This document shows positions 72 through 13,359 of a DNA stretch of 64,000 bases, in pieces (position 1 is the first letter of the stretch; the number at the start of each line of letters is the position of its first letter). This stretch comes from a bacterium (GTDB lineage: Bacteria; CG03): NCBI GenBank assembly GCA_043825615.1, contig JBDRRS010000003.1, positions 125,379 to 189,378 of the forward strand, written 5' to 3'. A model generated the notes under the pieces. It did not search any database and was not told where the DNA came from. It saw nothing but the letters and a program-made list of their open reading frames with translations. The position numbers and the translations under genes are program-made.

Positions 72-254
72 TTGGATTATTTTCAATTTAATAATTTACC
101 AAAATGGATAAAATTTACATTAATTATTCTTACGGGTATATTTTCTGGCTATCTCTTGGCAAAGATTAGGAATATTATCCAGTTAATTTTGCTTTATGTA
201 CTAATAGTTGGGGGTTTATTTTTGATAGGTTACTTTTTATGGTCAATACTTTAG
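72..254 (+). CDS. hypothetical small membrane protein (60 aa)
   Basis: ORF in track; hydrophobic, two predicted TM segments; AT-rich; followed within 12 nt by hairpin element copy A. Confidence 0.3.
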   Translation: MDYFQFNNLPKWIKFTLIILTGIFSGYLLAKIRNIIQLILLYVLIVGGLFLIGYFLWSIL

Positions 255-265
255 CTAAAAGAACA

Positions 266-323
266 GGGACGGTTCTGATACTTTTTAGTATGGAAATAAA
301 AACCAGAACCGTCTCGGTTTTTT
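266..323 (+). repeat. intergenic hairpin element copy A (terminator-like: 10-bp stem GACGGTTCTG/CAGAACCGTC, conserved loop, U-tract)
   Basis: Perfect 10-bp inverted repeat read directly; loop GATACTTTTTAG...GAAA..AAAACC shared with copies D, E, G; followed by TCGGTTTTTT. Confidence 0.6.
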
Positions 324-354
324 GAAAAGGTTATTTTAAATAGGAGGATAAATT

Positions 355-1134
355 ATGATTGTTCCTTTAAAAGATTTTGGCAAGTCAGTAAAAGAGCTAT
401 CACGAAATCCGCTTGGTATTATAGCGCTATTTATTGTGCTAGTTTATGGTTTTACATGCTTGCTATTTGGATTTTCAGCTAAATCTTTGACACCGAGCGA
501 AAGAGTTCCGCTTATATGGTTTACTACTCTTTTTCCTTGTTTAGTATTAGTTGTATTCTTTAGGTTAGTTACTAGACATAATCGGAAATTGTATGCTCCA
601 AAAGATTTTCGCGATGATGAATCATTCTTTGGAGCTATAAGAAAAAATCAAACGAATCCATCGGAAGCAAAGGAAAGTGATGCTGATATAAAGGATTTGA
701 TGGAATACGGCGAGGGCTTTCAAATAATCAAAAAACTGGAAGAAAAAATAAAAGAAGATTTACGAGTAAGAAAAGTTAGCAATTCTGATAAAAAGGCCGA
801 AGTTTTGATTCATCAGTTGGCGGCAGCGCAAGTATTAACTTGGTTTGAAAAAACATATTATATGCTGTTTGGCAGTCAAATTGCTTTATTAAAATCACTT
901 AATGAAACTCCTTCAGGACTTACAAAACACTTTATCTCTTATAGATTTTTTGAGACAGTTAGAAATCAATACCCAAAAGCATTTTTATCTTGGAGTGTAG
1001 ATAATTATTTAAATTTTCTTATAACGTCCAACTTGATTTTACCAGAAAATGATAAATTGGTTATAACTGTAGTGGGTAGAGAATTCCTAACATGGCTAAC
1101 AAAATCGGGATATTCTGAATTTAAAGAGTATTAA
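355..1134 (+). CDS. hypothetical membrane protein (N-terminal TM helices, C-terminal soluble domain)
   Basis: 259-aa ORF with RBS-like AGGAGG 8 nt upstream; hydrophobic stretches at residues ~20-70; no recognisable catalytic motif. Confidence 0.5.
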   Translation: MIVPLKDFGKSVKELSRNPLGIIALFIVLVYGFTCLLFGFSAKSLTPSERVPLIWFTTLFPCLVLVVFFRLVTRHNRKLYAPKDFRDDESFFGAIRKNQTNPSEAKESDADIKDLMEYGEGFQIIKKLEEKIKEDLRVRKVSNSDKKAEVLIHQLAAAQVLTWFEKTYYMLFGSQIALLKSLNETPSGLTKHFISYRFFETVRNQYPKAFLSWSVDNYLNFLITSNLILPENDKLVITVVGREFLTWLTKSGYSEFKEY

Positions 1135-1185
1135 TCCTAATAGCAATGAGAAAAAGGAAAAAAAAGGTAACGTCTTTGATATTGA

Positions 1186-1228
1186 GAGGGCGAAAATGAA
1201 GATGGAAACCAGAACCGCCCTGGATTTT
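1186..1228 (+). repeat. intergenic hairpin element copy B (GAGGGCG...CGCCCTGGATTTT)
   Basis: Stem GGGCG/CGCCC flanking loop containing GAAAACCAGAACC shared with copies A and C. Confidence 0.45.
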
Positions 1229-1312
1229 AGAAGCCTATCCAAGTGACTGATTTAGGATGTTACGTGATTAAAGAATTAATCTAATATCAAAATAGGGGGT
1301 AAGGTCATAAGA

Positions 1313-1915
1313 ATGCCAAAGAAATTAAGAGGTTATAAAATTTATATTGCACCGCAGATTTCAGGATATTTAGATACTAATGGACAACCTGTAGTATATG
1401 ATGAAAAAACAAAAAAGAGTCTTGACCCTAATAATATTAATGATAAAATTACAATTTATGAGAGACAAGTAAAAGAATGGTTTCTCAACAGGGCATCGAG
1501 ATTACTGAGTGGTAAGAAAAATGGATTTATAATTCTAATGTTGTCAATTTCTTATATTGAAGGTGTTGAGCGATATAGACAAGGGAATAATAGTAGAAAT
1601 AGTAGTACAAACTATTTTAAAACAGGGCTTCAAAGAATATTTGCGGCACTGCATGTAAGCAATCATGACTTAAATGATTTTTATAGCCAAGTAAGATGTG
1701 GATTATTTCATGTGGGGATGACACGAAAGCAAGTAATCATTAGTCAACTTTACCCTCATCCGATAGATTTTTCAGAATCAAACACTATAAAAATTAATCC
1801 AAAAAAATTTCTAAGGGATATAAAGCTAGATTTTAATAGGTATTTAAAAGAACTAAGAGACCCAACCAAGATTGACCTAAGAAATAACTTCGACAGTATG
1901 TATAGGAATATGTAA
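1313..1915 (+). CDS. hypothetical protein (200 aa)
   Basis: ORF in track, AT-rich island, co-directional with neighbours; no motif recognised. Confidence 0.5.
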   Translation: MPKKLRGYKIYIAPQISGYLDTNGQPVVYDEKTKKSLDPNNINDKITIYERQVKEWFLNRASRLLSGKKNGFIILMLSISYIEGVERYRQGNNSRNSSTNYFKTGLQRIFAALHVSNHDLNDFYSQVRCGLFHVGMTRKQVIISQLYPHPIDFSESNTIKINPKKFLRDIKLDFNRYLKELRDPTKIDLRNNFDSMYRNM

Positions 1916-2005
1916 GAAAATAGAAAAAAAGTTATAGCGTTAGAAATTTAATCCCCAAGAAGAAAAGTAAAAGAAAATGGTGAAGAAAGAGAAGGCGTAG
2001 AAGAA

Positions 2006-2028
2006 GATGAAAACCAGAACCATCCCGG
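2006..2028 (+). repeat. intergenic hairpin element partial copy C (GATGAAAACCAGAACCATCCCGG)
   Basis: 3' half of the element only; its GAACCATCCC is the exact complement of copy D 5' arm GGGATGGTTC. Confidence 0.4.
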
Positions 2029-2042
2029 ATAGAGATATATAG

Positions 2043-2678
2043 ATGAAAGAATATAAAACAATAAAAGATTGTGCAGTTGATATTATCTGTGAAAAAGGTG
2101 ATAAATTAAGCAATAAACAGATAGCTGAACAGGTACGGGATATTATGAAGTCAAATACTACTTGGAAATCTATTGCCTGGTATAAAAATAAAATAAACAG
2201 AGGGATTATAAAAGTTGACAGGCAGCAATATAAATGGATTAGAAAAGGAAAAGTGGTACTAAGAGAAATTACAGTTGAGAATTTAGATGAAATAAATTAT
2301 GAGAATGAAGCAGAAAGAATTGTAGCTGAATATGAGAAGAAACGAACCGGCAAATATCCAAAGAGTTTCAAAAAGGGACCGAATAGCCCCGGATATGATT
2401 TAGAGAGCACAGACCGACATATAGAGGTAAAGGGCAAAAAAAACAAAGGCACAAGATGGTTGCCCCTAACAGCCAATGAAACAGAGAAACTAATCAAAGA
2501 TCCAAAATACTGGTTGTATTTAGTGGAAGGGGATATAGAAAAAAAGCCGGACAATGTTGATATATATGCGATTTCAAAAAATGATTTACTAAGTATGACA
2601 CAACTTAAAATACATGCAAGATTAACGCAATTATCAAATAAAGAAAAGAGGAAGAATTGGAAGGTCAGGAAAGTGTGA
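2043..2678 (+). CDS. DUF3883-like (restriction-endonuclease-fold) domain protein with N-terminal helical/HTH-like region
   Basis: C-terminal segment GYDLESTDRHIEVKGKKNKGTRWLPLTANETEKLIKDPKYWLYLVEG resembles the DUF3883 signature as recalled (GYDi...IEVK...lT.nE...YwLY.V); sits directly upstream of Type III mod. Confidence 0.5.
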   Translation: MKEYKTIKDCAVDIICEKGDKLSNKQIAEQVRDIMKSNTTWKSIAWYKNKINRGIIKVDRQQYKWIRKGKVVLREITVENLDEINYENEAERIVAEYEKKRTGKYPKSFKKGPNSPGYDLESTDRHIEVKGKKNKGTRWLPLTANETEKLIKDPKYWLYLVEGDIEKKPDNVDIYAISKNDLLSMTQLKIHARLTQLSNKEKRKNWKVRKV

Positions 2679-2753
2679 GAGGAATTTGTTCTGAAACTGA
2701 ATTTCTTTGAGAGTTTAAAATTTGGTAGAATAGTGAAATGAGGAATTATTTAT

Positions 2754-4751
2754 ATGAAAAACATTTTTAAAAACAAATTGTATGCATTACTTAAAAAAGA
2801 CGTTCGCCTTTGGGACAAAGAAAAGAAAGAACTCAATGAAACTCTTCTGAAAGACTTGATTGATAAGCTAGACGAAAAACTGCTCGGATTGCTGCTCGAC
2901 GACAAAGAAGCAAAAGAAAAGTTTTTTATCAAAGTTAAAGACGTTTTTGTATTAAAGCAAAATGAGTTAAAATTTTTTATTGATGAAAACAAGCTTGATA
3001 ACTCCTATACACAATATCAAAACAAAATAGGATTGCGTGTCGGGAATAAACTTTTAAGCGAACGAGATGAAGTAGTTTTGGATTGGCCTTTCAAGGATTG
3101 TGTGCTTGAAGGCGGGATGACTAAAGAAGACCAAAAAAGAAATGAGATATTTTTTAATGTAGTGTTAGCAAAAGATGAAATTGACCGGTTGGAAGATCCG
3201 AAGGCATTGGTTAATTGGAAAAGATACACTGCTAATGGTGCGGAAAAGGTAAAAGAACTTGAAAGAGATAAAGACGGCACAATCCGGGAAAATTTAATTA
3301 TCAAAGGTAACAATTTGCTTGCTTTACATAGTCTTAAAGAGCAATTTGCCGGAATGGTGAAATTGATTTACATTGATCCGCCTTACAATAGAGACGCTGA
3401 CACTTTTTATAATGATAACTTTAAGCATTCAACATGGTTAACTTTCATGAAAAACAGACTGGAAGTTGCAAAAGATTTATTAAGAGATGATGGAGTGATT
3501 TTTGTGCAGTGTGATGATAATGAACAAGCATATTTGAAAGTTTTGATGGATAAAATTTTTGGAAAGGATTTGTTGCTTTCAATTCATCATATACAAGTTA
3601 GATATGGAAGTAAATCTTTAAATGAAAGAAAAGATTTTCAAGAATTATTAGAATACGTATTAATATACAAAAATAAAAATATTAATATTAATTTCAACAA
3701 ACCAACGCAAAAGTATCCATTAAATAAATTTAATTTAAAAATACAGCATTCAGATAAACCTTCAAAACAAGTTATTGAAAATGGAAGGAAAGTAGATATT
3801 TGGGATTCTGATAATTTTACTATTAAAGAACAGAAAACTGGAGGTATTGATTTTTTTAAAGAGACTTGGATTTCAGGTAGTATATTATCAGGTACTGGTC
3901 ACGGGAAAATGTATATAAAGATTATAGATAAAAGAAGAAGAGAAGATGGAAATGGATGTTTATATAGGATACATGGGATAGGTGAAGATGGACTGGGTTA
4001 TAGATATTATACTAACCCTCAAAATTCTGGTGCAGAAAGAGGAAAAATGTATACGAAAGTACCATTAAAGATTCTTGAACAAGTGAAAAAAGGGACTGCA
4101 AAAAAAGAAAGTCCAATAATTAATTATTATGATTTTAGTCCAGATATTGGGAATATTAGTCATGAAGGAGGTTTTTCTTTTAATTCAGGGAAAAAACCAA
4201 TTAAGATGTTGAAACAATTTATTAATTATTTTAAGGAAAAAAATTGTTTAGTTCTTGATTTTTTTGCTGGATCTGCTTCAACCGCTCACGCAGTTTTACA
4301 ACTTAACAAAGAAGATGGTGGAAACAGAAAATTTCTTTTAGTTGAACAAATGGATTATATAAACACCATTACTTGTCCCAGAGTGCAAAAAATAATAGAA
4401 AAAGAAAATATCGATGATTCTTTCATTTATCTCGAACTTGCTAAATGGAACGAAGAGGCAAAAGAAAAAATATTGAAAGCGAAAAGTTTGAGCGTCTTGG
4501 AAAAACTTTTTGACGAACTTTATGAGCGATATTTCCTTAACTACAATGTAAAAACAAAAGAGTTCAAAGAAAAAACGATTAAGGAAGAAGAATTTAAAAA
4601 GCTTGGTATAGCCAAACAGAAAAAACTTTTTGTTGAAATGTTGGATATGAACCAGATGTATGTGAATTTTAGCGAAAGAGCGGATAAGAAATACAATCTC
4701 TCAAAAGAAGACATTGCATTGAGTGAAGAATTTTATAAATCTAAAAAGTAA
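2754..4751 (+). CDS. mod: Type III restriction-modification system methyltransferase (Mod), N6-adenine beta-class
   Basis: Motif IV LIYIDPPYN (DPPY) at residue ~207 precedes motif I DFFAGSAST (FxGxG-like) at ~503, the beta-class order typical of Type III Mod; stop overlaps start region of res. Confidence 0.85.
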   Translation: MKNIFKNKLYALLKKDVRLWDKEKKELNETLLKDLIDKLDEKLLGLLLDDKEAKEKFFIKVKDVFVLKQNELKFFIDENKLDNSYTQYQNKIGLRVGNKLLSERDEVVLDWPFKDCVLEGGMTKEDQKRNEIFFNVVLAKDEIDRLEDPKALVNWKRYTANGAEKVKELERDKDGTIRENLIIKGNNLLALHSLKEQFAGMVKLIYIDPPYNRDADTFYNDNFKHSTWLTFMKNRLEVAKDLLRDDGVIFVQCDDNEQAYLKVLMDKIFGKDLLLSIHHIQVRYGSKSLNERKDFQELLEYVLIYKNKNININFNKPTQKYPLNKFNLKIQHSDKPSKQVIENGRKVDIWDSDNFTIKEQKTGGIDFFKETWISGSILSGTGHGKMYIKIIDKRRREDGNGCLYRIHGIGEDGLGYRYYTNPQNSGAERGKMYTKVPLKILEQVKKGTAKKESPIINYYDFSPDIGNISHEGGFSFNSGKKPIKMLKQFINYFKEKNCLVLDFFAGSASTAHAVLQLNKEDGGNRKFLLVEQMDYINTITCPRVQKIIEKENIDDSFIYLELAKWNEEAKEKILKAKSLSVLEKLFDELYERYFLNYNVKTKEFKEKTIKEEEFKKLGIAKQKKLFVEMLDMNQMYVNFSERADKKYNLSKEDIALSEEFYKSKK

Positions 4752-4753
4752 AT

Positions 4754-7528
4754 ATGGACGAGCAAAATCTTCAACAACTTGTTGAATCAGAAATAGGCCG
4801 CAAAACCATTTCTAAGATAGAAATACCGGAGTTTATATCCAGTAATTTAAAGCATGATTTTTGGTATTGGCAAAAAGAAGCTTTGCAGTATTTTGTTGCC
4901 TTTGATGCTCTGGAATATGAATATGAAAAGCCGCTAAACGAGCCAACGCATTTGATGTTTAATATGGCCACTGGTACCGGCAAAACTCTGCTTATGGCCG
5001 CTTTAATTATATATTACTACAAAAAAGGCTATAGATATTTCATTTTCTTTGTTAATCAAAACAATATCGTTGATAAAACTGAAAATAATTTTATCAATAA
5101 AAATCATACCAAGTATCTTTTTCACCAAAATATAGTTATTGACGATAAAACTATCAATATCCGTAAAGTAGAAACTTTTGACAATGCTAATGATATTCAA
5201 ATCAAGTTCACATCTATTCACAAGCTTCACAATGTTGTTTATTTGGCAAAAGAAAATGCGGTCACGCTGGAAGATTTACAAAAAAGAGATTTAGTAATGA
5301 TTGGCGATGAAGCTCATCACTTCAATGCTTCAACTATGAGAAATGGACAAACGGAAATGGATTTGCCAACCGAGCTAAAAGGAAATGCCAGCGAAAAAGA
5401 TGTTGAGAAAAGTTGGGAAAATACAGTGTTGAATAAAATTTTAAGAAAAGGCAAAAATAAACAAGATGTTGAAAATAGAAATGTTTTATTGGAATTTACT
5501 GCAACGATACCGAGAAATGCGGATGTTATAGAAAAATATCGCACTAAGACCATTTATAAATTTGAACTTGTAGATTTTTTAAACGCGGGATATACCAAAG
5601 AAATAAATCTCGTTTCTACTTCGCTCAAAAAGAAAGAAAAAATTTTACTTGCTTTGCTTTTTAACTGGTATAGGCATCAAATTGCTCTTAAAAATAATAT
5701 TGCCAATTTTAAGCCTGTTATTCTTTTTAGAAGTAAGTTTATTAAAGAATCAAAGAAAGATTATGAAGAATTTTTGTCGGTTGTTGATAATTTAAAACCT
5801 GCCGATTTTTATTTTTTAAAAAATATTGAAAATTCCATAAAACAAGAGCAATCCAGTGCGTTCAAGGTATATGAACAAGGCAAAAGTCGAGTGCGACAAA
5901 TGCTCCAATTTATCAAGTATAAAAAAATCAACAGTCGAGAAATTGTGAACTATATCAAAGACGAATTTACCGAAAGAAACTGTATTATAACTAACTCGAA
6001 AGACAACAAGGCAACTACTAAAGAGAAAACAACAGAATACCAAGAACAATTACTTAATAGTTTGGAGGATAGAAATAATCATATACGGGCTATTTTTACT
6101 GTTAAACGCCTAACGGAAGGGTGGGATGTTTTAAATCTTTTTGATATTGTTCGCCTTTATAACGGTAGGGATGAAGGCTACGAAAAAAGTACTGGGAAAA
6201 GAAAAGCTGGAGAGGCAACCGTTCAGGAAATACAGCTCATCGGGCGAGGTGTACGCTACTTTCCTTTTTTTTACAATGAACACGAGAAAAACAAGAGAAA
6301 ATTTGATAATGAATTAGAAAATCCACTTCGGGTGTTAGAGGAATTTTATTACCACAGCGACGACGATGTCCGCTATCTTGATGAGTTAAAGCGAGAACTT
6401 AAAAATAAAGGATTTATTCAAGATAATCGCGAGATAAAGAAATTTGCTCTGAAAGATGAATTTAAGCAAAACTATTTCTTTAAAGAAATAAAAGTTTGGA
6501 AAAATGAAAGAATAGATAATCCAGAAAAAAGAAAAAGAACTTTGGCGGAATTGGAAAAAGAATTTGTTTTTGAATATGAAACAAAAGAATTTGCATTGAA
6601 AGAACAGCAAATTGTTTTAGATAAAGAAAAAGATGAAATTTTAGCGGAAAGTTTACAAAAATATAAAAAAACTATCAGCGCAAAAGTTTCGGATTTTGAG
6701 AAGCATATTGTTTGGAAAGCAATTAATAAAAAAGCTACAAAGGATTTATCGCTTTTACGTTTTGATAACTTGCAAAAGGAGTTGAATCTAAATAGTGTTG
6801 ATGAAATTTTATCAGATCGTTTTATCGGCAATTTTAGGGTCAATATTATTGTAGCAAAAGAAAAACAGGGGCTTGATGATATAAGCAATGACGAAAAACT
6901 GGAGTTATTTTTAAAGTTTTTTGATGAATTTACAAGAAAACTCAAAGAAATAGCCAATCCGTATAAGGGAACTGAAAAATTTGAGCCATTTTCTTTTGAA
7001 GATTTATTTGGCGAGGAAAAGCCAAAGAGCGTGCTTATTGATCCTGAAAGTAAAAATCTTGAGGCTGAATTATTAAAAAATAGCTGGTATGTTCTAAATG
7101 GATTTAATGGAACAAGCGAAGAAAGAGAATTATTAGAATTTATGAAAAATAAAATCGGAAATCTACAAGAAAAATATAATGAAGTTTATTTACTACGGAA
7201 TGAAGAAGTATATAAAATTTACGATTTCGAACAAGGACGTGGATTTGAGCCGGATTTTTTGCTTTTTCTAAAAGGCAATAAAGGAAATTTATATTATCAA
7301 ATCTTTATTGAGCCAAAAGGAAGCCAATTTAAGGACAAGGATGGTATGTTTAAATATAGCAAAGAAGGCTGGAAAGAAGAATTTTTACAGAAAATTACTG
7401 ATAAATATGGCAATGGTAATTTATTGAAAGCTGAAAGTAAAGAATATAAATTGCTTGGATTGCCTTTATTTAATGAAAGAGAAAAACATACTTTCGAAGA
7501 AACATTCAACGAACAATTGTTTAACTAA
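4754..7528 (+). CDS. res: Type III restriction endonuclease Res subunit (SF2 helicase + PD-ExK nuclease)
   Basis: Walker A MATGTGKT, DEAH box (MIGDEAHHF), 924 aa; C-terminal PD...ExK-like motif (EPDF...QIFIEPKG); immediately downstream of mod. Confidence 0.85.
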   Translation: MDEQNLQQLVESEIGRKTISKIEIPEFISSNLKHDFWYWQKEALQYFVAFDALEYEYEKPLNEPTHLMFNMATGTGKTLLMAALIIYYYKKGYRYFIFFVNQNNIVDKTENNFINKNHTKYLFHQNIVIDDKTINIRKVETFDNANDIQIKFTSIHKLHNVVYLAKENAVTLEDLQKRDLVMIGDEAHHFNASTMRNGQTEMDLPTELKGNASEKDVEKSWENTVLNKILRKGKNKQDVENRNVLLEFTATIPRNADVIEKYRTKTIYKFELVDFLNAGYTKEINLVSTSLKKKEKILLALLFNWYRHQIALKNNIANFKPVILFRSKFIKESKKDYEEFLSVVDNLKPADFYFLKNIENSIKQEQSSAFKVYEQGKSRVRQMLQFIKYKKINSREIVNYIKDEFTERNCIITNSKDNKATTKEKTTEYQEQLLNSLEDRNNHIRAIFTVKRLTEGWDVLNLFDIVRLYNGRDEGYEKSTGKRKAGEATVQEIQLIGRGVRYFPFFYNEHEKNKRKFDNELENPLRVLEEFYYHSDDDVRYLDELKRELKNKGFIQDNREIKKFALKDEFKQNYFFKEIKVWKNERIDNPEKRKRTLAELEKEFVFEYETKEFALKEQQIVLDKEKDEILAESLQKYKKTISAKVSDFEKHIVWKAINKKATKDLSLLRFDNLQKELNLNSVDEILSDRFIGNFRVNIIVAKEKQGLDDISNDEKLELFLKFFDEFTRKLKEIANPYKGTEKFEPFSFEDLFGEEKPKSVLIDPESKNLEAELLKNSWYVLNGFNGTSEERELLEFMKNKIGNLQEKYNEVYLLRNEEVYKIYDFEQGRGFEPDFLLFLKGNKGNLYYQIFIEPKGSQFKDKDGMFKYSKEGWKEEFLQKITDKYGNGNLLKAESKEYKLLGLPLFNEREKHTFEETFNEQLFN

Positions 7529-7541
7529 AATGGAAAAGTAT

Positions 7542-7599
7542 GGGGATGGTTCTGATACTTTTTAGGATGGGAATGAAAACCGGAAGCGTCCCGGATTTT
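7542..7599 (+). repeat. intergenic hairpin element copy D
   Basis: GGGGATGGTTCTGATACTTTTTAGGATGGGAATGAAAACCGGAAGCGTCCCGGATTTT; outer stem GGGATG/CGTCCC compensates relative to copy A. Confidence 0.55.
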
Positions 7600-7619
7600 A
7601 CAAACAAAAGGAGGTCATT

Positions 7620-7724
7620 ATGAGTGCAAAAAAGAAAGCAAAGAAGAAAGCAAAGAAGAAAGTAGCTAAAAGGAAAGGCACAAAAAAGAGTACAGGTCCT
7701 GGAGGAGGCCGATCTGGTCGATAG
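7620..7724 (+). CDS. lysine-rich micro-ORF (34 aa, MSAKKKAKKKAKKKVAKRKGTKKSTGPGGGRSGR)
   Basis: ATG preceded by AAAGGAGG RBS at -8; not in ORF track (below 60 aa); low-complexity basic peptide. Confidence 0.3.
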   Translation: MSAKKKAKKKAKKKVAKRKGTKKSTGPGGGRSGR

Positions 7725-7743: not shown

Positions 7744-8196
7744 ATGGGTGGAAGTGGGCAAAATAGATTCAAGAATGCAGAGGAAGCCTTAAAGAAACTC
7801 GGTCAGGATTTTAATGATTGGTGTTCTATTTTAACGACTCACAGTATGCAAGCTGCATATGCAATTATCGCAGCAAACTGGGCCGTGCATGGTAATGCTC
7901 AAAAAATACTCAATAATTGTTGCTCAAAATGGTCACTTGTCGTTGTTTTCCTATTTCTTGGGGTAAACTTGCTCGCAACCAAATGGATGATCCACAAGCA
8001 CTACAAACAATTTCTATATGCAGAGGAGAACTCGGAAAGATGGGAAAAAGAATTCAGAGAAAATAAGGGCAAACGAACTTTCTGGCCGTATACTAAGTGT
8101 ATTGAATATCTTGGTATTGCTCTCCGTTGGCTGAAAGTGGGGGCACCAGTGATAGCTGCTCTGCTATTCATTCTGAGTCTGTTCTTTGGATCGTAA
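7744..8196 (+). CDS. hypothetical membrane protein (150 aa)
   Basis: ORF in track; hydrophobic segments (WSLVVVFLFLGVNLLA, APVIAALLFILSLFF). Confidence 0.45.
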   Translation: MGGSGQNRFKNAEEALKKLGQDFNDWCSILTTHSMQAAYAIIAANWAVHGNAQKILNNCCSKWSLVVVFLFLGVNLLATKWMIHKHYKQFLYAEENSERWEKEFRENKGKRTFWPYTKCIEYLGIALRWLKVGAPVIAALLFILSLFFGS

Positions 8197-8211
8197 TGGT
8201 ACAACGAAGAA

Positions 8212-8275
8212 CGGGAACAGTTTTGATACTTTTTAGGATGAGAATTAAAAGCGGAAGAGCACCTGTGCTCTTTGC
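8212..8275 (+). repeat. intergenic hairpin element copy E (diverged 3' arm GAGCACCTGTGCTC)
   Basis: Shares GTTTTGATACTTTTTAGGATGAGAATTAAAAGCGGAAG with copies A and D. Confidence 0.45.
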
Positions 8276-8554
8276 TTGGAGAGAACGTGAGTAAACAAAA
8301 CCTTAGAAGCTATCCAGTAATAGCGCACGGAGCAGAATATCTTGTAATCGGCTATCTGATGCGTAGGAATATCCTTGCTTACAAGGCATAGCCAGAGAGC
8401 GTTACAAGAATGAAAAGGGGTTTGATATTATCGCAAAGAAATTGGGTATATCTTACCCGGGGATGGAAGATGTCTTACCTGCCTGACGGCAGGCAGGTTG
8501 TAAAGTGCTGTCCCCGCGGATGCTTTGTGTATAATGACGGTAGGAGAAAAAAAT

Positions 8555-8968
8555 ATGAAACCAAACAATTTAAACTCAAGTTTATTTAATTTTGATTATG
8601 TAATCGTAAAAAAACAATGGCTTCGAAATTTTAAGGAAATCATTAAAGATTTAAAAAAGTTAAAAACGAGATCAAAAACTAATATTAAAAAAATAGCAGA
8701 AAAAGATTTAAGAAAAACTATAGAAAATCATATAAAAGATAATGCAGAAGAATTTACTAGAATTATAGAACTCATTGAATTGCAAGTAAGAGTGCTAGTA
8801 AAATTGGAGGAATTTAGTGTTGAAACTCTAAACAAACATCTTTTTTTAACACTTACTCTTTTTAGAATGTTCCATAAGAAAGATATTTCAAAAAGTTTAG
8901 AAAGAAAATTAAGTTGTATTTGTAACCGTCTTAAATGTAGATTTACAAAATTTAAAAAGAAATTCTAA
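8555..8968 (+). CDS. hypothetical protein (start moved to internal Met MKPNNL)
   Basis: ORF 8525-8968 in track; GGAGA RBS-like precedes the ATG at 8555; no motif recognised. Confidence 0.4.
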   Translation: MKPNNLNSSLFNFDYVIVKKQWLRNFKEIIKDLKKLKTRSKTNIKKIAEKDLRKTIENHIKDNAEEFTRIIELIELQVRVLVKLEEFSVETLNKHLFLTLTLFRMFHKKDISKSLERKLSCICNRLKCRFTKFKKKF

Positions 8969-9011: not shown

Positions 9012-9056
9012 AGGGTACCGGGGCTTTTAAAATGGGAATGGTAACCGGAAGCGGAT
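9012..9056 (+). repeat. intergenic hairpin element copy F (partial)
   Basis: AATGGGAATGGTAACCGGAAGCGG matches the 3' half of copy D. Confidence 0.4.
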
Positions 9057-9138: not shown

Positions 9139-10302
9139 ATGGGAGTTTTTAAGTTTAAAACAAATATAGGGATAATGAGTATAGATTATAGACAAACAAA
9201 GAATTTCCCAACGGAAGTTAGAATAGTATCAAAGGATGATTTCGATAGACATATTGAATTTGATTTAGCCACTCACATTAAAATAGAAATCAATCAGTTC
9301 GTAAGTATTCATGATGATGATGGAACTTATTTGATATATGGTGGTTTAAAAATAAGCAAAATAGAACAAAATCTTGAGAGAATCCGATATTATTGTGATT
9401 TAGATAAAATGATATTTGAAAAAAAAGATGTGTTATACAAGGTTGACCATTGGGAAATTGAATTATTTGGAGTTGATTTTTATTCAGAAGAGATCCTGAG
9501 CGGTGAAATGAGATTCCCTTTTTCTCATAAAATTGATAAACCTTTTAGTTTATTTGAAGTCAAACAGCAATCTTGGGAAATACCATATAAAGGATATGAT
9601 TTTTTTGAAAGCCAAGATTTAATATTTGACCTTGTTAGAATACTTTCAATACTCTCCATGAGAGAAGTATGTTTTGGTGACATAAAAGCGTATAATGAAA
9701 ATAATGAATGTATAAAAGCTCAATTAAATAAACCAAAATATATATTTGAACCGAAACTAGATTATAAAATAGGGAATCTAAAGCTAAAAAAATCCTTAAA
9801 TTTTATTTCTGAATTACCTAATCTTAGTTCAAAAAAATATTCTACGCTGGTTTTTTACTATTTAAATGTATTTCATCAAACCTATGCAGAATTTAGTTTA
9901 GCATTTATGTATCAAGTTTTCGAGTGTATATTTAATTCAAAATGGAAACAAGAAAAAGAATTTCTGAAAATTAAAGAGAAGGGGGAGAAAACAAATGAAT
10001 TAAAGAATGAATACATAGAGAAAAAAATAATAGAAGCTTATCGTGTGCTAAACAAAGATGTACAAAATATATTGGATATTACACCGGGGGAATTCTTTAA
10101 ATTGATTAAAAAAATAAGACAGGTATATTTTCATGCAGGGGATTTAAGTAAAGCACTAAATGAAATGAGAAATAAACTACCAGGCGTTAGAAACGAAGAT
10201 AGAAATTATATTATAGCATTAGGGCAAGTAGTATTATCGGTATTATTACTTTCGGCGGTATATGATTATTCTTTAGAGGATATAGAAGTAACAACTAAAT
10301 AA
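9139..10302 (+). CDS. hypothetical protein (387 aa)
   Basis: ORF in track; last gene of AT-rich island; no motif recognised. Confidence 0.5.
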   Translation: MGVFKFKTNIGIMSIDYRQTKNFPTEVRIVSKDDFDRHIEFDLATHIKIEINQFVSIHDDDGTYLIYGGLKISKIEQNLERIRYYCDLDKMIFEKKDVLYKVDHWEIELFGVDFYSEEILSGEMRFPFSHKIDKPFSLFEVKQQSWEIPYKGYDFFESQDLIFDLVRILSILSMREVCFGDIKAYNENNECIKAQLNKPKYIFEPKLDYKIGNLKLKKSLNFISELPNLSSKKYSTLVFYYLNVFHQTYAEFSLAFMYQVFECIFNSKWKQEKEFLKIKEKGEKTNELKNEYIEKKIIEAYRVLNKDVQNILDITPGEFFKLIKKIRQVYFHAGDLSKALNEMRNKLPGVRNEDRNYIIALGQVVLSVLLLSAVYDYSLEDIEVTTK

Positions 10303-10313
10303 AAAGAAAAACG

Positions 10314-10347
10314 AGATTAGTTCTAATACTTTTCTATCTATTGAAAC
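10314..10347 (+). repeat. intergenic hairpin element weak copy H (GTTCTAATACTTTT)
   Basis: Shares GTTCTAATACTTTT with copy G; 12 nt after stop of the 9139-10302 ORF. Confidence 0.3.
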
Positions 10348-10566
10348 CTGCAGAAAGAAATTACATCCTGACAAAACTATCATTCTCGTGGTCTGAAGAA
10401 CTTCGGGTTTTGTAAAGTACGGGATACGGGTAACGGGGGAAGAACAAATCCCCCTCAATCCCCCTTTACTAAAGGGGGAAAGATTGCCACGGGCTTCGCC
10501 CTCGCAATGGCAGGCCAGGGGGAGGAAAGAACTTTGAGTTAAGAAAGCATTTGGTATAATTGCGCT

Positions 10567-11346
10567 ATGATTGGCGCGATAGCGGGTGATATTATCGGTT
10601 CTGTCTTTGAATGGAATAATATTAAGACGACGGAGTTCCCTTTATTTTGTGACGAATCAATGTTTACGGACGATACAGTATTAACCATAGCGGTTGCCGA
10701 TTGTATATTAAACAGTAAAGATTATGCCGGGACTCTTAAATCATGGGGCAGAAAATATCCGGATGCCGGATACGGGGGAAATTTCGGGGCATGGCTGTAT
10801 AATGAGAGAAGCGAACCGTATAACAGTTGGGGGAACGGGTCGGCTATGAGAGTCAGTCCGGTTGGTTTTGCTTTCGGAACCCTTGAGGAAGTATTGGAAG
10901 AAGCAAAGAAAAGCGCTGAAGTAACCCACAACCATCCTGAAGGAATAAAAGGCGCCCAGGCGGCCGCCGGAGCAATATTTTTAGCGAGGCAGGGTAAAAG
11001 TAAAATTGAAATTAAGGAGTATGTGGAAGAGCAATTTGATTATAACCTGAGCAGAACTCTTGATGAAATCAGACCGTCATATTCCTTTGATGTGAGTTGT
11101 CAGGGCTCTGTGCCCGAAGCTATAACCGCATTTTTAGAGTCAAACAGTTTTGAGGATGCAGTTAGAAAAGCGGTTTCAATAGGAGGGGACAGCGATACGA
11201 TTGCCTGTATAGCGGGCGGAATTGCCCAGGCGTTTTATAAGGAAATTCCTGCGGAAATTATATTGAATGTAAAAAAAAGATTGCCGCCGGATATGCTGGG
11301 GGTTGTTGAAGAATGGAGAAAGAGAATAGTAAATGGTAAATGGTGA
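10567..11346 (+). CDS. ADP-ribosylglycohydrolase family protein (DraG/ARH-like)
   Basis: Family-typical N-terminal GAIAGDIIGS and C-terminal GGDSDTIACIAGGIAQA motifs. Confidence 0.8.
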   Translation: MIGAIAGDIIGSVFEWNNIKTTEFPLFCDESMFTDDTVLTIAVADCILNSKDYAGTLKSWGRKYPDAGYGGNFGAWLYNERSEPYNSWGNGSAMRVSPVGFAFGTLEEVLEEAKKSAEVTHNHPEGIKGAQAAAGAIFLARQGKSKIEIKEYVEEQFDYNLSRTLDEIRPSYSFDVSCQGSVPEAITAFLESNSFEDAVRKAVSIGGDSDTIACIAGGIAQAFYKEIPAEIILNVKKRLPPDMLGVVEEWRKRIVNGKW

Positions 11347-11386
11347 TTAGGGAAGAAGGACGAGAGGTATTTAGTATAATTGTGGT

Positions 11387-12235
11387 ATGAGACTTCATAT
11401 CGTCGTATTATTTTCAATTATTGTCTTATCTCTAACAGCGCCGGTCTATGCGGATAATAAAAATGAGATTAATCTTAATTTAGAATGCTCAAGTTATGCG
11501 GGAACGAGCAGAAATATTAATTATTCTTACCGGTCCGGTAAACTTCCATTAAAATACCAGATAGAGAGTTTTACTTTTCCAAATAAAAGGGTAATCAGGA
11601 GTGTTCTTTCGGGAAGAATTTCATTGGATATGAAATACTTCGAACTTGGCTATGGCTATAATTGTGATAAATTCAGTACTGGCCGCAATGGAATATTACG
11701 TATAGGTTCAAAAAATGCATGGGCGCTTGTACTTAAAGGATTCTACAATGTAGAAGAACAGTTTCTGATTGGTGAAAAGAGAAGATACAATACATCAGCT
11801 TACATGGATATGTTGATAGTGTTTGGTAATTTAATATATTTGAACTTTGATTTGAACATGGTGGGGATGCATGTAACTGATGAAGTTATAGATGAAGATG
11901 GAGCATGTAGGGACACTATTAAAGAAGAATCAGATTTTATTTCAGATGCTGAATTTAGTTTAAAAATAAAACTGTTTCCCAGAAGGAAAATATCATATTT
12001 CGTTGGAATAGGTGGGATAAGCAATGAAAATATACATTATGGCGAGAACACTGAAGATTATTGTTTTGTTGGCTATTTTGAGATACTTAATCAGATAAAT
12101 AAGAATATTCATTGGAATATTTCTTTCAAGTGCGGAAATGGTGAAAAGAGTTATCGTACAGGAGAGTTCGAACCCTCGACGAATTCAAGCCAAAAGATGA
12201 TTGGATTGTTTACAAGCGTTTCTTATAAATTGTAA
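11387..12235 (+). CDS. hypothetical secreted protein
   Basis: N-terminal signal peptide-like MRLHIVVLFSIIVLSLTAPVYA; no motif recognised. Confidence 0.45.
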   Translation: MRLHIVVLFSIIVLSLTAPVYADNKNEINLNLECSSYAGTSRNINYSYRSGKLPLKYQIESFTFPNKRVIRSVLSGRISLDMKYFELGYGYNCDKFSTGRNGILRIGSKNAWALVLKGFYNVEEQFLIGEKRRYNTSAYMDMLIVFGNLIYLNFDLNMVGMHVTDEVIDEDGACRDTIKEESDFISDAEFSLKIKLFPRRKISYFVGIGGISNENIHYGENTEDYCFVGYFEILNQINKNIHWNISFKCGNGEKSYRTGEFEPSTNSSQKMIGLFTSVSYKL

Positions 12236-12249
12236 TTAGAGGGTTTTTT

Positions 12250-13167
12250 TTATTCGGGATATTCTTCTTCGTCGTCTTTCTCCGGAGAGATAAAGGATAT
12301 TTTGTAGGTTTTCCCGTTCGTCACTATTCTGATTGTTCCGTCCGTGTCGGTTCTGCATACGAGTGAGCCGTAATTTCTTAATCTGTTTATTACGCCGCTC
12401 TGCGGGTGTCCCCATGTGTTCGGACCGACGCAGATGATGGATACCAGCGGCTGCGCCCAGTCCAGAAACCAGTTTTGTGTAAGAGAGTTTTCAGAGCCGT
12501 GATGCGGGACCTTTAAAACAGTGCAGAGAAGATCGTCCTTGAAGGAGCGGACTATTTTCCGGCCCGCCGCTGCTTCCGCGTCACCGGTGAAGAGAAAAGA
12601 AACATCTTTGTAGGTCAGTTTGAAGACAACAGAGTTATCGTTCGCCGGTGACCCTCCGCGCCTTAGGTATTTTTTAGGGGGGTGCAGGATTTTGATTTGG
12701 CAGTCTTTGTCCCAATCCAGCTCATCGCCTGCGTGCACCTCTATCAGGGATATGTCTTTTTTTTCGGCAATCTTCAGTATCAGTTCGTAATCTTCTTCAT
12801 CCGGGGGGAAACCCGAATCCACGATGGTGCCCACATCAAATTCTTGGACAACGGGCCTGATGCCTCCGATGTGATCGCTGTGCGGATGGCTCATGATGAT
12901 ATAATCAATGTATTTTATACCCATTTTCTTGAGGAAAGGAACAACGATTGTTGAGCCGGCGTCAAACGGGTTCCATCCGACACCGCCGCTTCCGCCGTCC
13001 GAAAGCACTGTTTTGCCGCCCGGAAGTTGTATGAGAGCGCAATCTCCCTGTCCGACGTCAATAAAGGTTATCCTGAGAAGTTTTTCAGGCGGGTTTTGGG
13101 GCGCTGCGGTTATACCGGATACGAGAAAAATGAGCGCAGCCGCGCATATTTTTATTGGGATTTTCAT
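12250..13167 (-). CDS. MBL-fold metallo-hydrolase, ComEC/Rec2 C-terminal-domain-like, secreted
   Basis: HPHSDH motif, DVGQGD, HHGS; signal peptide. Confidence 0.75.
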   Translation of the reverse strand: MKIPIKICAAALIFLVSGITAAPQNPPEKLLRITFIDVGQGDCALIQLPGGKTVLSDGGSGGVGWNPFDAGSTIVVPFLKKMGIKYIDYIIMSHPHSDHIGGIRPVVQEFDVGTIVDSGFPPDEEDYELILKIAEKKDISLIEVHAGDELDWDKDCQIKILHPPKKYLRRGGSPANDNSVVFKLTYKDVSFLFTGDAEAAAGRKIVRSFKDDLLCTVLKVPHHGSENSLTQNWFLDWAQPLVSIICVGPNTWGHPQSGVINRLRNYGSLVCRTDTDGTIRIVTNGKTYKISFISPEKDDEEEYPE

Positions 13168-13272
13168 TACGATATTGTAATAATTAAAAGCCGGAACGCA
13201 AAAAGTTCAAGGGAAGAGGCGGGTAACGGGGAGCGGGCCGGGGCTTTGCAATAAAAGAAAGGGTAAAAGAAA

Positions 13273-13359
13273 GGGGACGGTTCTAATACTTTTTGGGCGG
13301 GGCAAAATAAGAAACACCGTTGGTTTCGGGGAAATGTCATATTGTAAAGCACCGTCCCC
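13273..13359 (+). repeat. intergenic hairpin element copy G (outside the AT-rich island)
   Basis: GGGGACGGTTCTAATACTTTTTGGG...; distal complement CACCGTCCCC at 13350-13359; upstream of ankyrin gene. Confidence 0.45.

Follow-up and report, generated by a model that had tools for sequence, protein, structure and literature searches.

The three consecutive open reading frames (ORFs) at 355–2678 of a 64,000-nt stretch of bacterial DNA raise the question of whether they encode one defence system or are separate genes that happen to lie side by side. The stretch (contig JBDRRS010000003.1; hereafter the window) belongs to the metagenome-assembled genome (MAG) of an uncultured bacterium, with locus tags ABIJ15_00715 onward. 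ORF1 encodes a membrane protein, ORF2 a protein of 200 residues and ORF3 a protein with a helix–turn–helix (HTH) and a nuclease domain. All three are present on the plus strand (Table 1), as the original prediction had it, and a Type III restriction–modification (R-M) system follows. The analysis described here indicates that 355–2678 is probably the first part of a low-GC array of ∼10.3 kb consisting of independently acquired conflict or defence units, rather than a three-component system. The three genes appear to be separate, individually mobile single-gene units, each most likely acting alone. The biochemical activities and any defence phenotype discussed below are what we infer from domain content, conserved residues, folds, absence of co-occurrence and the positions of repeats.

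Co-occurrence was analysed by tblastn of ORF1, ORF2, ORF3, the methyltransferase (Mod) and restriction (Res) subunits of the Type III system and other array proteins against every fetched homologue locus. Across all of these loci, each protein matched within its own family only. The ∼17 loci holding ORF3 homologues contained no homologue of ORF1, ORF2, Mod or Res; no homologue of ORF2 or ORF3 was found near ORF1 homologues, and none of ORF1 or ORF3 near ORF2 homologues. The original prediction had grouped the three genes as one effector/sensor or toxin–antitoxin (TA)-like module and had itself named a failure of the trio to co-occur in other genomes as evidence to the contrary; because this is what was found, the module is contradicted. 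Its broader expectation of a defence-related neighbourhood was borne out. No PADLOC-DB v2 component matched ORF1 or ORF2, and the only match for ORF3 was to Cas5a at E 0.032, which is noise.

The sequence from position 1 to ∼10.3 kb is a same-strand block of ∼31% GC that extends beyond the window start. GC climbs from ∼0.30 to 0.44–0.50 past the last repeat copy (R6), where the array ends, and the backbone from ∼12 kb onwards (45–50% GC) encodes ordinary housekeeping and surface proteins. No tRNA genes that could serve as island landmarks were found anywhere in the window. Repeat finding and nhmmer profile searches identified a palindromic unit of ∼70 nt, which the original prediction had not noted, after almost every unit of the array (R0–R6; Table 1). 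Four matches to its motif AAACCAGAACCNYCYNGG are present in the window, where 0.09 would be expected by chance, and all of them are intergenic. The intact form has a 12-bp stem, GGGACGGTTCTG/CAGAACCGTC(T/C)C, enclosing a conserved 26-nt loop, and most copies end in an intrinsic-terminator-like tail, GGATTTTA. Copies start 3–50 nt past a stop codon. R0 begins at the stop codon of an upstream small transmembrane (TM) ORF and ends 28 nt 5′ of ORF1; its RNA fold has an energy of −26.9 kcal/mol (z −5.3). The gaps between ORF1 and ORF2 (178 nt) and between ORF2 and ORF3 (127 nt) each contain a copy, and ORF1 and ORF2 are each flanked by copies; ORF3 and mod are 75 nt apart, and the stretch from 2030 to 7531, which holds ORF3, Mod and Res, is free of copies. 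R1 and R2, which flank ORF2, retain the right half, fold no better than shuffled sequence and look like hybrid copies, with the same right half and different left halves. R2 ends 13 nt 5′ of the ORF3 start codon and together with AGAGATATATAG makes up the ORF3 leader. R4 keeps the left half and the loop, with a different hairpin in place of the right arm.

ORF3 is the clearest candidate of the three: its nuclease domain is one with a proven role in Type IV enzymes, and the HTH reader attached to it is very rare. The proposed relation of its C-terminal segment to DUF3883 was upheld by a profile search, in which residues 90–169 matched PF13020 (NOV_C, formerly DUF3883) with 40.6 bits (E 2.8e-10; gathering cutoff 22.1); the match recurs in 28/28 aligned family members. 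The segment that had suggested it (GYDLESTDRHIEVKGKK...LTANETEKL...YWLYLVEG) holds the invariant residues D119, E128-V-K130, T143, E146, Y159 and E162. Across 28 sequences of the family E89, E91, D119, E128 and K130 are invariant, giving an E..D..ExK active site, and ORF3 has both the PD-(D/E)xK catalytic constellation and the nuclease core fold. DUF3883 has been placed in the PD-(D/E)xK superfamily (Steczkiewicz et al.; PMC3424549). In the AlphaFold2 (AF2) model of ORF3 (mean predicted local distance difference test score, pLDDT, 85), an HTH (residues 7–52) is followed by a low-confidence lysine-rich linker and an α/β nuclease core (∼85–195). The structures that match this core best include NhoI and DpnI, and NhoI, Hjc and DpnI score equally well. 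Profile searches of the PDB with the ORF2 and ORF3 families returned nothing at E <= 10.

A lysine-rich helical region capable of binding nucleic acid had been proposed to precede the nuclease domain. A DNA-binding-type N-terminal domain does exist, but it is a three-helix HTH (helices 7–18, 24–35 and 41–52; pLDDT ∼90; no β-wing predicted), and the lysine-rich stretch is the low-confidence linker after it. No modification-sensing domain (PUA, DUF3427, SRA or DpnI-type winged helix) was detected in ORF3 at Pfam E <= 1, and the HTH is unclassified; HARE-HTH matches the family weakly (3/28 members, best E 0.013). A profile of the HTH alone retrieved 87 significant proteins among 1.84 billion representatives. 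Elsewhere, the HTH is joined to NucS_C (43 bits), HNH, HD_4 or PDDEXK_5-like domains in proteins of 214–265 residues, and also to TM segments. It further forms the N-terminus of sigma-70-like proteins with regions 2 and 4 (P0256, P0258 and P0262 among the HTH-profile matches) and occurs three times in tandem in P0254, which has a weak HARE-HTH match (E 5e-4).

The 36 relatives of ORF3 are all metagenomic, ∼205–220 residues long and 52–87% identical. None was found in 185,579 GTDB species representatives, in 2.9 M viral contigs or, by tblastn, in plasmids. At most homologue loci no methyltransferase (MTase) gene adjoins, so that an obligatory cognate methyltransferase is absent. A simple 6mA- or 5mC-dependent specificity is not obvious because the MTases beside ORF3 differ in class, an N6-adenine (m6A) MTase adjoining it in the window and a C5 MTase in locus L004. 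Locus L002, from the window's sequencing run, holds an 87% identical homologue placed after PLD-protein and SNF2-helicase genes and overlapped at its 3′ end, over 22 nt, by a DUF6508 gene; the island also encodes a sacsin-like SACS+NOV_C (DUF3883) protein of 1525 residues (L002 1–1543, 8001–9043). In L017, the homologue (76% identical) has a Type I HsdS gene on one side and an AAA_15/AAA_21 ATPase gene on the other. Others adjoin a HEPN_RES_NTD1+RES toxin (L019) or an REase-ARP nuclease (L023), and some stand alone among unrelated genes. The L017 homologue is preceded by a strong repeat copy (E 1e-16), and the junction, ...GGAYAGAGATATATAG followed directly by ATGAAAGAATAT, is identical to that between repeat and ORF3 in the window. 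Aligned as DNA, the window and L017 are homologous from within the repeat right half to a point no more than a few bases from the ORF3 stop codon, and L017 has nothing that corresponds to the 75-nt ORF3–mod spacer. The L002 homologue likewise has a degenerate right half as its leader and an unrelated 3′ flank. From these two junctions it follows that the conserved unit is the repeat right half plus ORF3 and that Mod and Res are separate.

By analogy with active DUF3427–DUF3883 enzymes and with winged-helix–nuclease fusions, ORF3 is most likely a solitary restriction-type nuclease that is Type IV-like and would need no cognate methyltransferase. Its HTH would bind invading DNA and position the DUF3883 domain, in which the catalytic residues are intact, for cleavage. 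DUF3883 is the catalytic domain of YenY4I, which cleaves in a modified-cytosine-dependent manner, and of McaZI-type DUF3427–DUF3883 fusions (Lutz et al., 2019; PMC6765204). ORF3 resembles McaZI and YenY4I in its C-terminal PF13020 catalytic domain with intact PD-(D/E)xK residues and in being a single polypeptide, solitary or in a defence island, that has no obligatory cognate methyltransferase. In contrast to their DUF3427–DUF3883 and PUA–DUF3427–DUF3883 architectures, it has neither PUA nor DUF3427, is about one third of the size and carries a 50-residue HTH. The combination of one reader with many nucleases is a pattern described for Type IV enzymes (PMC11037411). The winged-helix–nuclease Type IV fusions, with DpnI and NhoI (Helbrecht et al., 2024; PMC11037411; PDB entries 4kyw and 8q5n), share with ORF3 a small DNA reader joined to interchangeable nucleases, but there is no sequence-level relation; compared with DpnI, the domain order is reversed, with the reader N-terminal, and the β-wing is missing from the prediction. 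DUF3883 has also been annotated on the defence protein HmaA (PMC11232893). HmaA (Snf2 helicase–DUF3883) and large ATPase–DUF3883 proteins (PMC11232893; PMC3710099; PMC3424549) have the same nuclease family and an R-M-like defence context, whereas ORF3 has no ATPase or helicase domain. If the ORF3 reader does recognize a particular DNA modification or structure, it would be a new specificity module for the restriction-enzyme toolbox.

ORF1 was correctly described as a two-TM protein, with hydrophobic spans at ∼17–45 and ∼49–74. Both termini are predicted to be cytoplasmic because basic residues precede the first span and follow the second. After a conserved N-terminal 2-TM module (∼8–90) come a helical linker and, at the C-terminus, a cytoplasmic domain that is winged-helix-like; its HTH_45 match (E 0.0044) is below the cutoff, and the same Pfam family (PF14947) is precomputed on seven homologues. 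In alignments, the part common to distant relatives is the 2-TM module, in which NPLGIIALFI.L.YG...F..FP..L..F..LV...L..P.D is invariant at ∼30% overall identity. The only profile library to name this module is PHROGs, as phrog_26238 (unknown function; residues 17–95, E 8.6e-9). The 396 relatives include proteins from Yersinia, Parashewanella and Desulfoluna. Nine (pro)viral contigs carry the module; a tblastn search of phages with ORF1 returned nothing. Elsewhere it is fused to REC (PF00072), to a PD-(D/E)xK-like 'DG...EIKY' domain or to pYEATS (PF20305) (modular relatives P0192, P0195, P0196, P0202, P0213, P0231, P0241 and P0243). Homologues precede DUF2130, OLD-type and PLD genes (L010 and L011), lie between int and ogr of a P2-like Yersinia prophage (L013) or adjoin gyrA (L039). 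ORF1 would be an inner-membrane protein with the constant 2-TM module as the probable effector and the winged helix as one of several interchangeable sensor-type C-termini, and a role in prophage-style exclusion or abortive infection is plausible. Like 2-TM conflict effectors and prophage superinfection-exclusion proteins, it joins a small two-pass membrane module to a cytoplasmic domain. Further likenesses to these groups are the variety of C-termini (winged HTH, REC, PD-(D/E)xK-like, pYEATS), an accessory position in a P2-like prophage and relatives beside OLD and PLD genes. It differs from known 2-TM effectors in matching neither SLATT nor any PADLOC effector and in having no nucleotide-signalling partner gene nearby. 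A nearly invariant 2-TM module with swappable cytoplasmic domains makes ORF1 a candidate membrane effector found in prophages.

ORF2 had been said to contain no recognizable motif. This holds for profile matches, none of which was obtained in Pfam, NCBIfam, PADLOC or PHROGs, but not for the family alignment, in which R128-C-G-L-F-H133-x-G (an Rx4H motif) and E83-G84 are invariant. The protein consists of a small N-terminal β-domain and a helical HEPN-like core; in the AF2 model (pLDDT 91) the Rx4H motif lies at the C-terminal end of helix 117–133 and E83 lies in helix 71–90. The core appears to be a helical bundle, with HEPN structures among its matches. The HEPN active site comprises an Rx4–6H motif ending core helix 3 and, upstream of it, a conserved acidic residue (Anantharaman et al., 2013; PMC3710099), and ORF2 has both. 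ORF2 is like the HEPN RNases AbiV, HepT, ApeA and LsoA (Anantharaman et al., 2013; PMC3710099) in that its Rx4H closes the third core helix and its acidic residue lies in the second. The 87 relatives come from Omnitrophota, Paenibacillus, Flavobacterium, Bacteroides and DPANN archaea. One homologue is embedded, with overlapping stop and start codons, in an operon of PLD-helicase, Eco57I-type MTase, HATPase_c_3 and PDDEXK_1 genes (L007), and another lies among the Mrr, NERD and HsdR_N genes of a Paenibacillus island (L009); a third follows a Type II CBASS (cyclic-oligonucleotide-based anti-phage signalling system) operon by 62 nt (L037), and a fourth is in a Flavobacterium conjugative element (L035). 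Occurrence beside R-M, CBASS and other defence genes is a further likeness to the HEPN RNases of abortive-infection, TA and R-M-linked systems. We regard ORF2 as a probable member of a new HEPN family; it would be a metal-independent HEPN-type RNase acting as an abortive-infection or toxin-like effector. It would add a HEPN family missed by current profile libraries, as a result of which defence annotation tools overlook it beside R-M and CBASS operons.

The repeats of the array could be attC-like recombination sites of an integron-type or other site-specific cassette array, or palindromes of the REPIN (repetitive extragenic palindromic doublet forming a hairpin) or MITE (miniature inverted-repeat transposable element) kind or terminator hairpins that accumulated in a defence island. 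Integrons are known to store defence cassettes (bioRxiv 10.1101/2024.07.02.601719; PMC12614218), and the array resembles sedentary chromosomal integron arrays in its compact co-oriented units, each followed by a related imperfect palindrome, in a GC content below that of the backbone and in cargo that includes R-M, TA and nuclease genes and decayed fragments. Also in favour of recombination sites, short spacers separate same-strand genes, repeats start 3–12 nt past stop codons, seven copies fall within 10.3 kb compared with one partial copy in the other 53.7 kb, ORF3 takes the right half along into other arrays and R1 and R2 are hybrid-like. A GTDB scan with the repeat pattern yielded one relevant MAG, in addition to two chance Flavobacteriaceae matches. 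In this independent unclassified MAG (JBDRMV010000017.1; locus L015, 3892–6707), an HNH_2 gene, a perfect repeat copy and further cargo form a same-strand run. The cargo comprises an 87-residue C-terminal RE_TdeIII fragment, an MNT/HepT pair and a DUF2281/PemK pair whose toxin is disrupted; such a mix of restriction genes, TA pairs and gene fragments is what chromosomal integrons typically carry.

Several observations weigh against recombination sites of this type. Conserved R′′/R′ boxes (RYYYAAC/GTTRRRY), an unpaired central spacer or extrahelical bases are not visible, and the attC architecture (R′′/L′′–L′/R′ with AAC/GTT triplets) was not recognized in the alignment and folds read by eye, AAC...GTT being present in R0 only. 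Sequence variation breaks stem pairs without compensation, and most copies carry the terminator-like tail. The genes that border the L015 array upstream, the one array edge seen, are for pyruvate kinase, cupin and Imm5-like proteins; no integrase is encoded there or by the ten array-adjacent ORFs of the window scanned against Pfam. The right half that travels with the downstream gene is ∼45 nt, compared with the 6 nt expected for an integron attC. The partial copy outside the array (13264–13311, plus strand; left half GGGGACGGTTCTAATACTTTTTGGG, stem partner CACCGTCCCC ∼70 nt downstream) sits between divergent genes for an MBL-fold (metallo-β-lactamase) protein (12250–13167, minus strand) and an ankyrin protein (13383, plus strand), and because it lies outside the low-GC block the repeat is not strictly confined to the array. 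Taken together, an attC-like cassette array is considered unlikely, and a lineage-specific palindrome of the REPIN or terminator type is at least as likely as a cassette-recombination site. A more elaborate scheme would make the repeats the recombination sites of a non-canonical cassette-capture system without the classical attC signature, in which crossover inside the palindrome leaves the right half as the leader of the captured gene and single-gene defence modules are stockpiled; ORF1 (a modular 2-TM sensor–effector), ORF2 (a new HEPN RNase) and ORF3 (a DUF3883 nuclease with a new reader) would then all be previously unrecognized stand-alone anti-phage genes. As a whole, this scheme is judged distinctly unlikely. 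As a repeat-punctuated array in two unclassified MAGs, the locus nonetheless offers a small testable case of defence-island assembly outside classical integrons. The repeats had no Rfam family in a scan of 1–20 kb (E <= 1), and the pattern was not found in viral contigs. A structured RNA was also considered and rejected, as folding was better than shuffled in 2/7 copies only and variation breaks pairs rather than being compensatory.

The Type III R-M system that had been noted downstream of the trio is complete in Pfam and PADLOC searches, with mod preceding res by 2 nt and near-full PADLOC coverage. ORF3 might be its accessory, either a second nuclease or a controller-type HTH regulator, with ORF3, mod and res as one functional unit. 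The absence of repeats between 2030 and 7531 and the gap of just 75 nt would suit such a unit, as would the often tight packing of ORF3 homologues against other restriction-type operons (7 nt after a DUF4420 gene, 45 nt after an SNF2 helicase gene, overlapping the next gene). However, none of the loci with an ORF3 homologue contains a Mod or Res homologue, similarity to L017 and L002 extends no further than the ORF3 stop codon, and the ORF3–mod spacer, which is not conserved in ORF3 homologue loci, includes an extended −10-like box for mod (TGGTAGAAT; Table 1) that is a possible separate promoter for mod–res. Plasmid-borne relatives of the window Res have no DUF3883 neighbour, and the invariant catalytic residues of ORF3 argue against a purely regulatory role. 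An accessory function is accordingly held to be very unlikely; Mod and Res would be an ordinary R-M system that probably has a promoter of its own. A PD-(D/E)XK gene upstream of a related Type III system on a Peribacillus plasmid was examined as a possible counterpart of ORF3 and was rejected, being UvrD_C+PDDEXK_1 and unrelated (hhalign probability 0.07%).

A further possibility, that ORF3 is a selfish, free-standing homing-type endonuclease that inserts between defence-island genes and has no host function, is given an equally slim chance. Free-standing homing endonucleases are typical of viral contigs and plasmids, from which ORF3 is absent. The fold does not discriminate, given the equal scores of NhoI, Hjc and DpnI; ORF3 neighbours are overwhelmingly conflict or defence genes with no single conserved target gene, and the combination of its HTH with HNH, HD and NucS domains is as in restriction-type enzymes. 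Least credible is the model of the original prediction, a single sensor/effector or TA-like module of ORF1, ORF2 and ORF3 possibly working with the Type III system, which is highly improbable despite the adjacency, common strand and similar GC of the genes, the defence-type neighbourhoods of all three families and the degenerate state of R1 and R2, which may not terminate transcription, since no pair co-occurs in ∼30 independent loci, a repeat copy occupies each of the 178- and 127-nt gaps, and the phyletic spreads are separate, with ORF2 reaching archaea and ORF3 absent from the GTDB species representatives, while relatives of ORF1 and ORF2 are found in named isolates. With the independent-unit reading of 355–2678, the false lead of a new three-component system is removed and three concrete single-gene candidates take its place.

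Table 1. Coordinates of the genes, promoter-like element and repeat copies discussed for the array (window positions).
Feature	Position	Strand	Description
R0, intact repeat	253–327	+	Stem GGGACGGTTCTG/CAGAACCGTCTC plus outer pairs, ∼26-nt loop; nhmmer E 2.2e-21; family D1, inverted repeat I2
ORF1	355–1134	+	259 aa
R1, degenerate repeat	1163–1230	+	ORF1–ORF2 gap; right half conserved (GATGGAAACCAGAACCGCCCTGGATTTTAG), left half different; nhmmer E 7.8e-4; family D7
ORF2	1313–1915	+	200 aa
R2, right half only	1989–2030	+	Families D7/D3; motif match 2011–2028
ORF3	2043–2678	+	211 aa
Extended −10-like element TGGTAGAAT	2723–2731	+	In 75-nt ORF3–mod spacer; family D6 with TGGTATAAT sites upstream of ATGs 10567, 11387
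Mod, Type III methyltransferase	2754–4751	+	665 aa; PF01555, PF12564; PADLOC MTase_III 548.6 bits
Res, Type III restriction subunit	4754–7528	+	924 aa; PF04851 ResIII; PADLOC REase_III 352.9 bits, residues 18–917
R3, repeat	7531–7604	+	Starts 3 nt past res stop codon; nhmmer E 1e-22; fold z −2.1
R4, repeat	8201–8275	+	Starts 5 nt past stop of ORF 7744–8196; nhmmer E 8.8e-20
R5, right-half fragment	9025–9053	+	Between ORF 8525–8968 and ORF 9139–10302; family D2, 86%; nhmmer E 0.079, marginal
R6, left-half fragment	10306–10333	+	Directly past stop of ORF 9139–10302; family D4, 76%; nhmmer marginal

Several minor features were noted in the remainder of the array. Directly past R3, a 34-residue ORF (7620–7724, plus strand) has a good Shine–Dalgarno sequence, AAAGGAGG; its peptide, MSAKKKAKKKAKKKVAKRKGTKKSTGPGGGRSGR, is extremely basic (16 K/R, zero acidic residues), with a 12-nt tandem repeat beneath it (family D5). 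It ends 19 nt upstream of the gene for a membrane protein of 150 residues (7744–8196), the GC content of which (0.41) departs from that of the rest of the array. Between R4 and ORF 8525–8968, a gene remnant (8280–8470, plus strand) contains a stop codon (after ...AHGAEYLVIGYLMRRNILAYKA) and a frameshift (then ...YKNEKGFDIIAKKLG...); it is a decayed array unit with GC above its neighbours. The last array gene (9139–10302, plus strand) encodes 387 residues with a C-terminal hydrophobic span (356–377) and an Rx4H-like IRQVYFH; it had no Pfam, PADLOC or PHROG match, and a relationship to ORF2, considered from IRQVYFH, was rejected by hhalign (probability 0.5%).

A second, GC-rich motif (GTACGGGATACGGGTAACGGGGG... 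/ CCCCCTTTACTAAAGGGGG) is located at the boundary between array and backbone (10420–10520 and 13215–13245), and related sequence occurs, inverted, at the edge of the L015 array (3680–3790). A 60-nt direct repeat (GGGACACCTTRAAACGSCGTCGTCGG...CCACGTGG) is present in L015 as well, at ∼3800 and ∼5180. In the window, extended −10 boxes TGGTATAAT and TAGTATAAT (10549–10570 and 11369–11390) end ∼7 nt before the ATGs of an ADP-ribosylglycohydrolase gene and of the next gene, a spacing that suggests leaderless or near-leaderless transcripts in the source organism.

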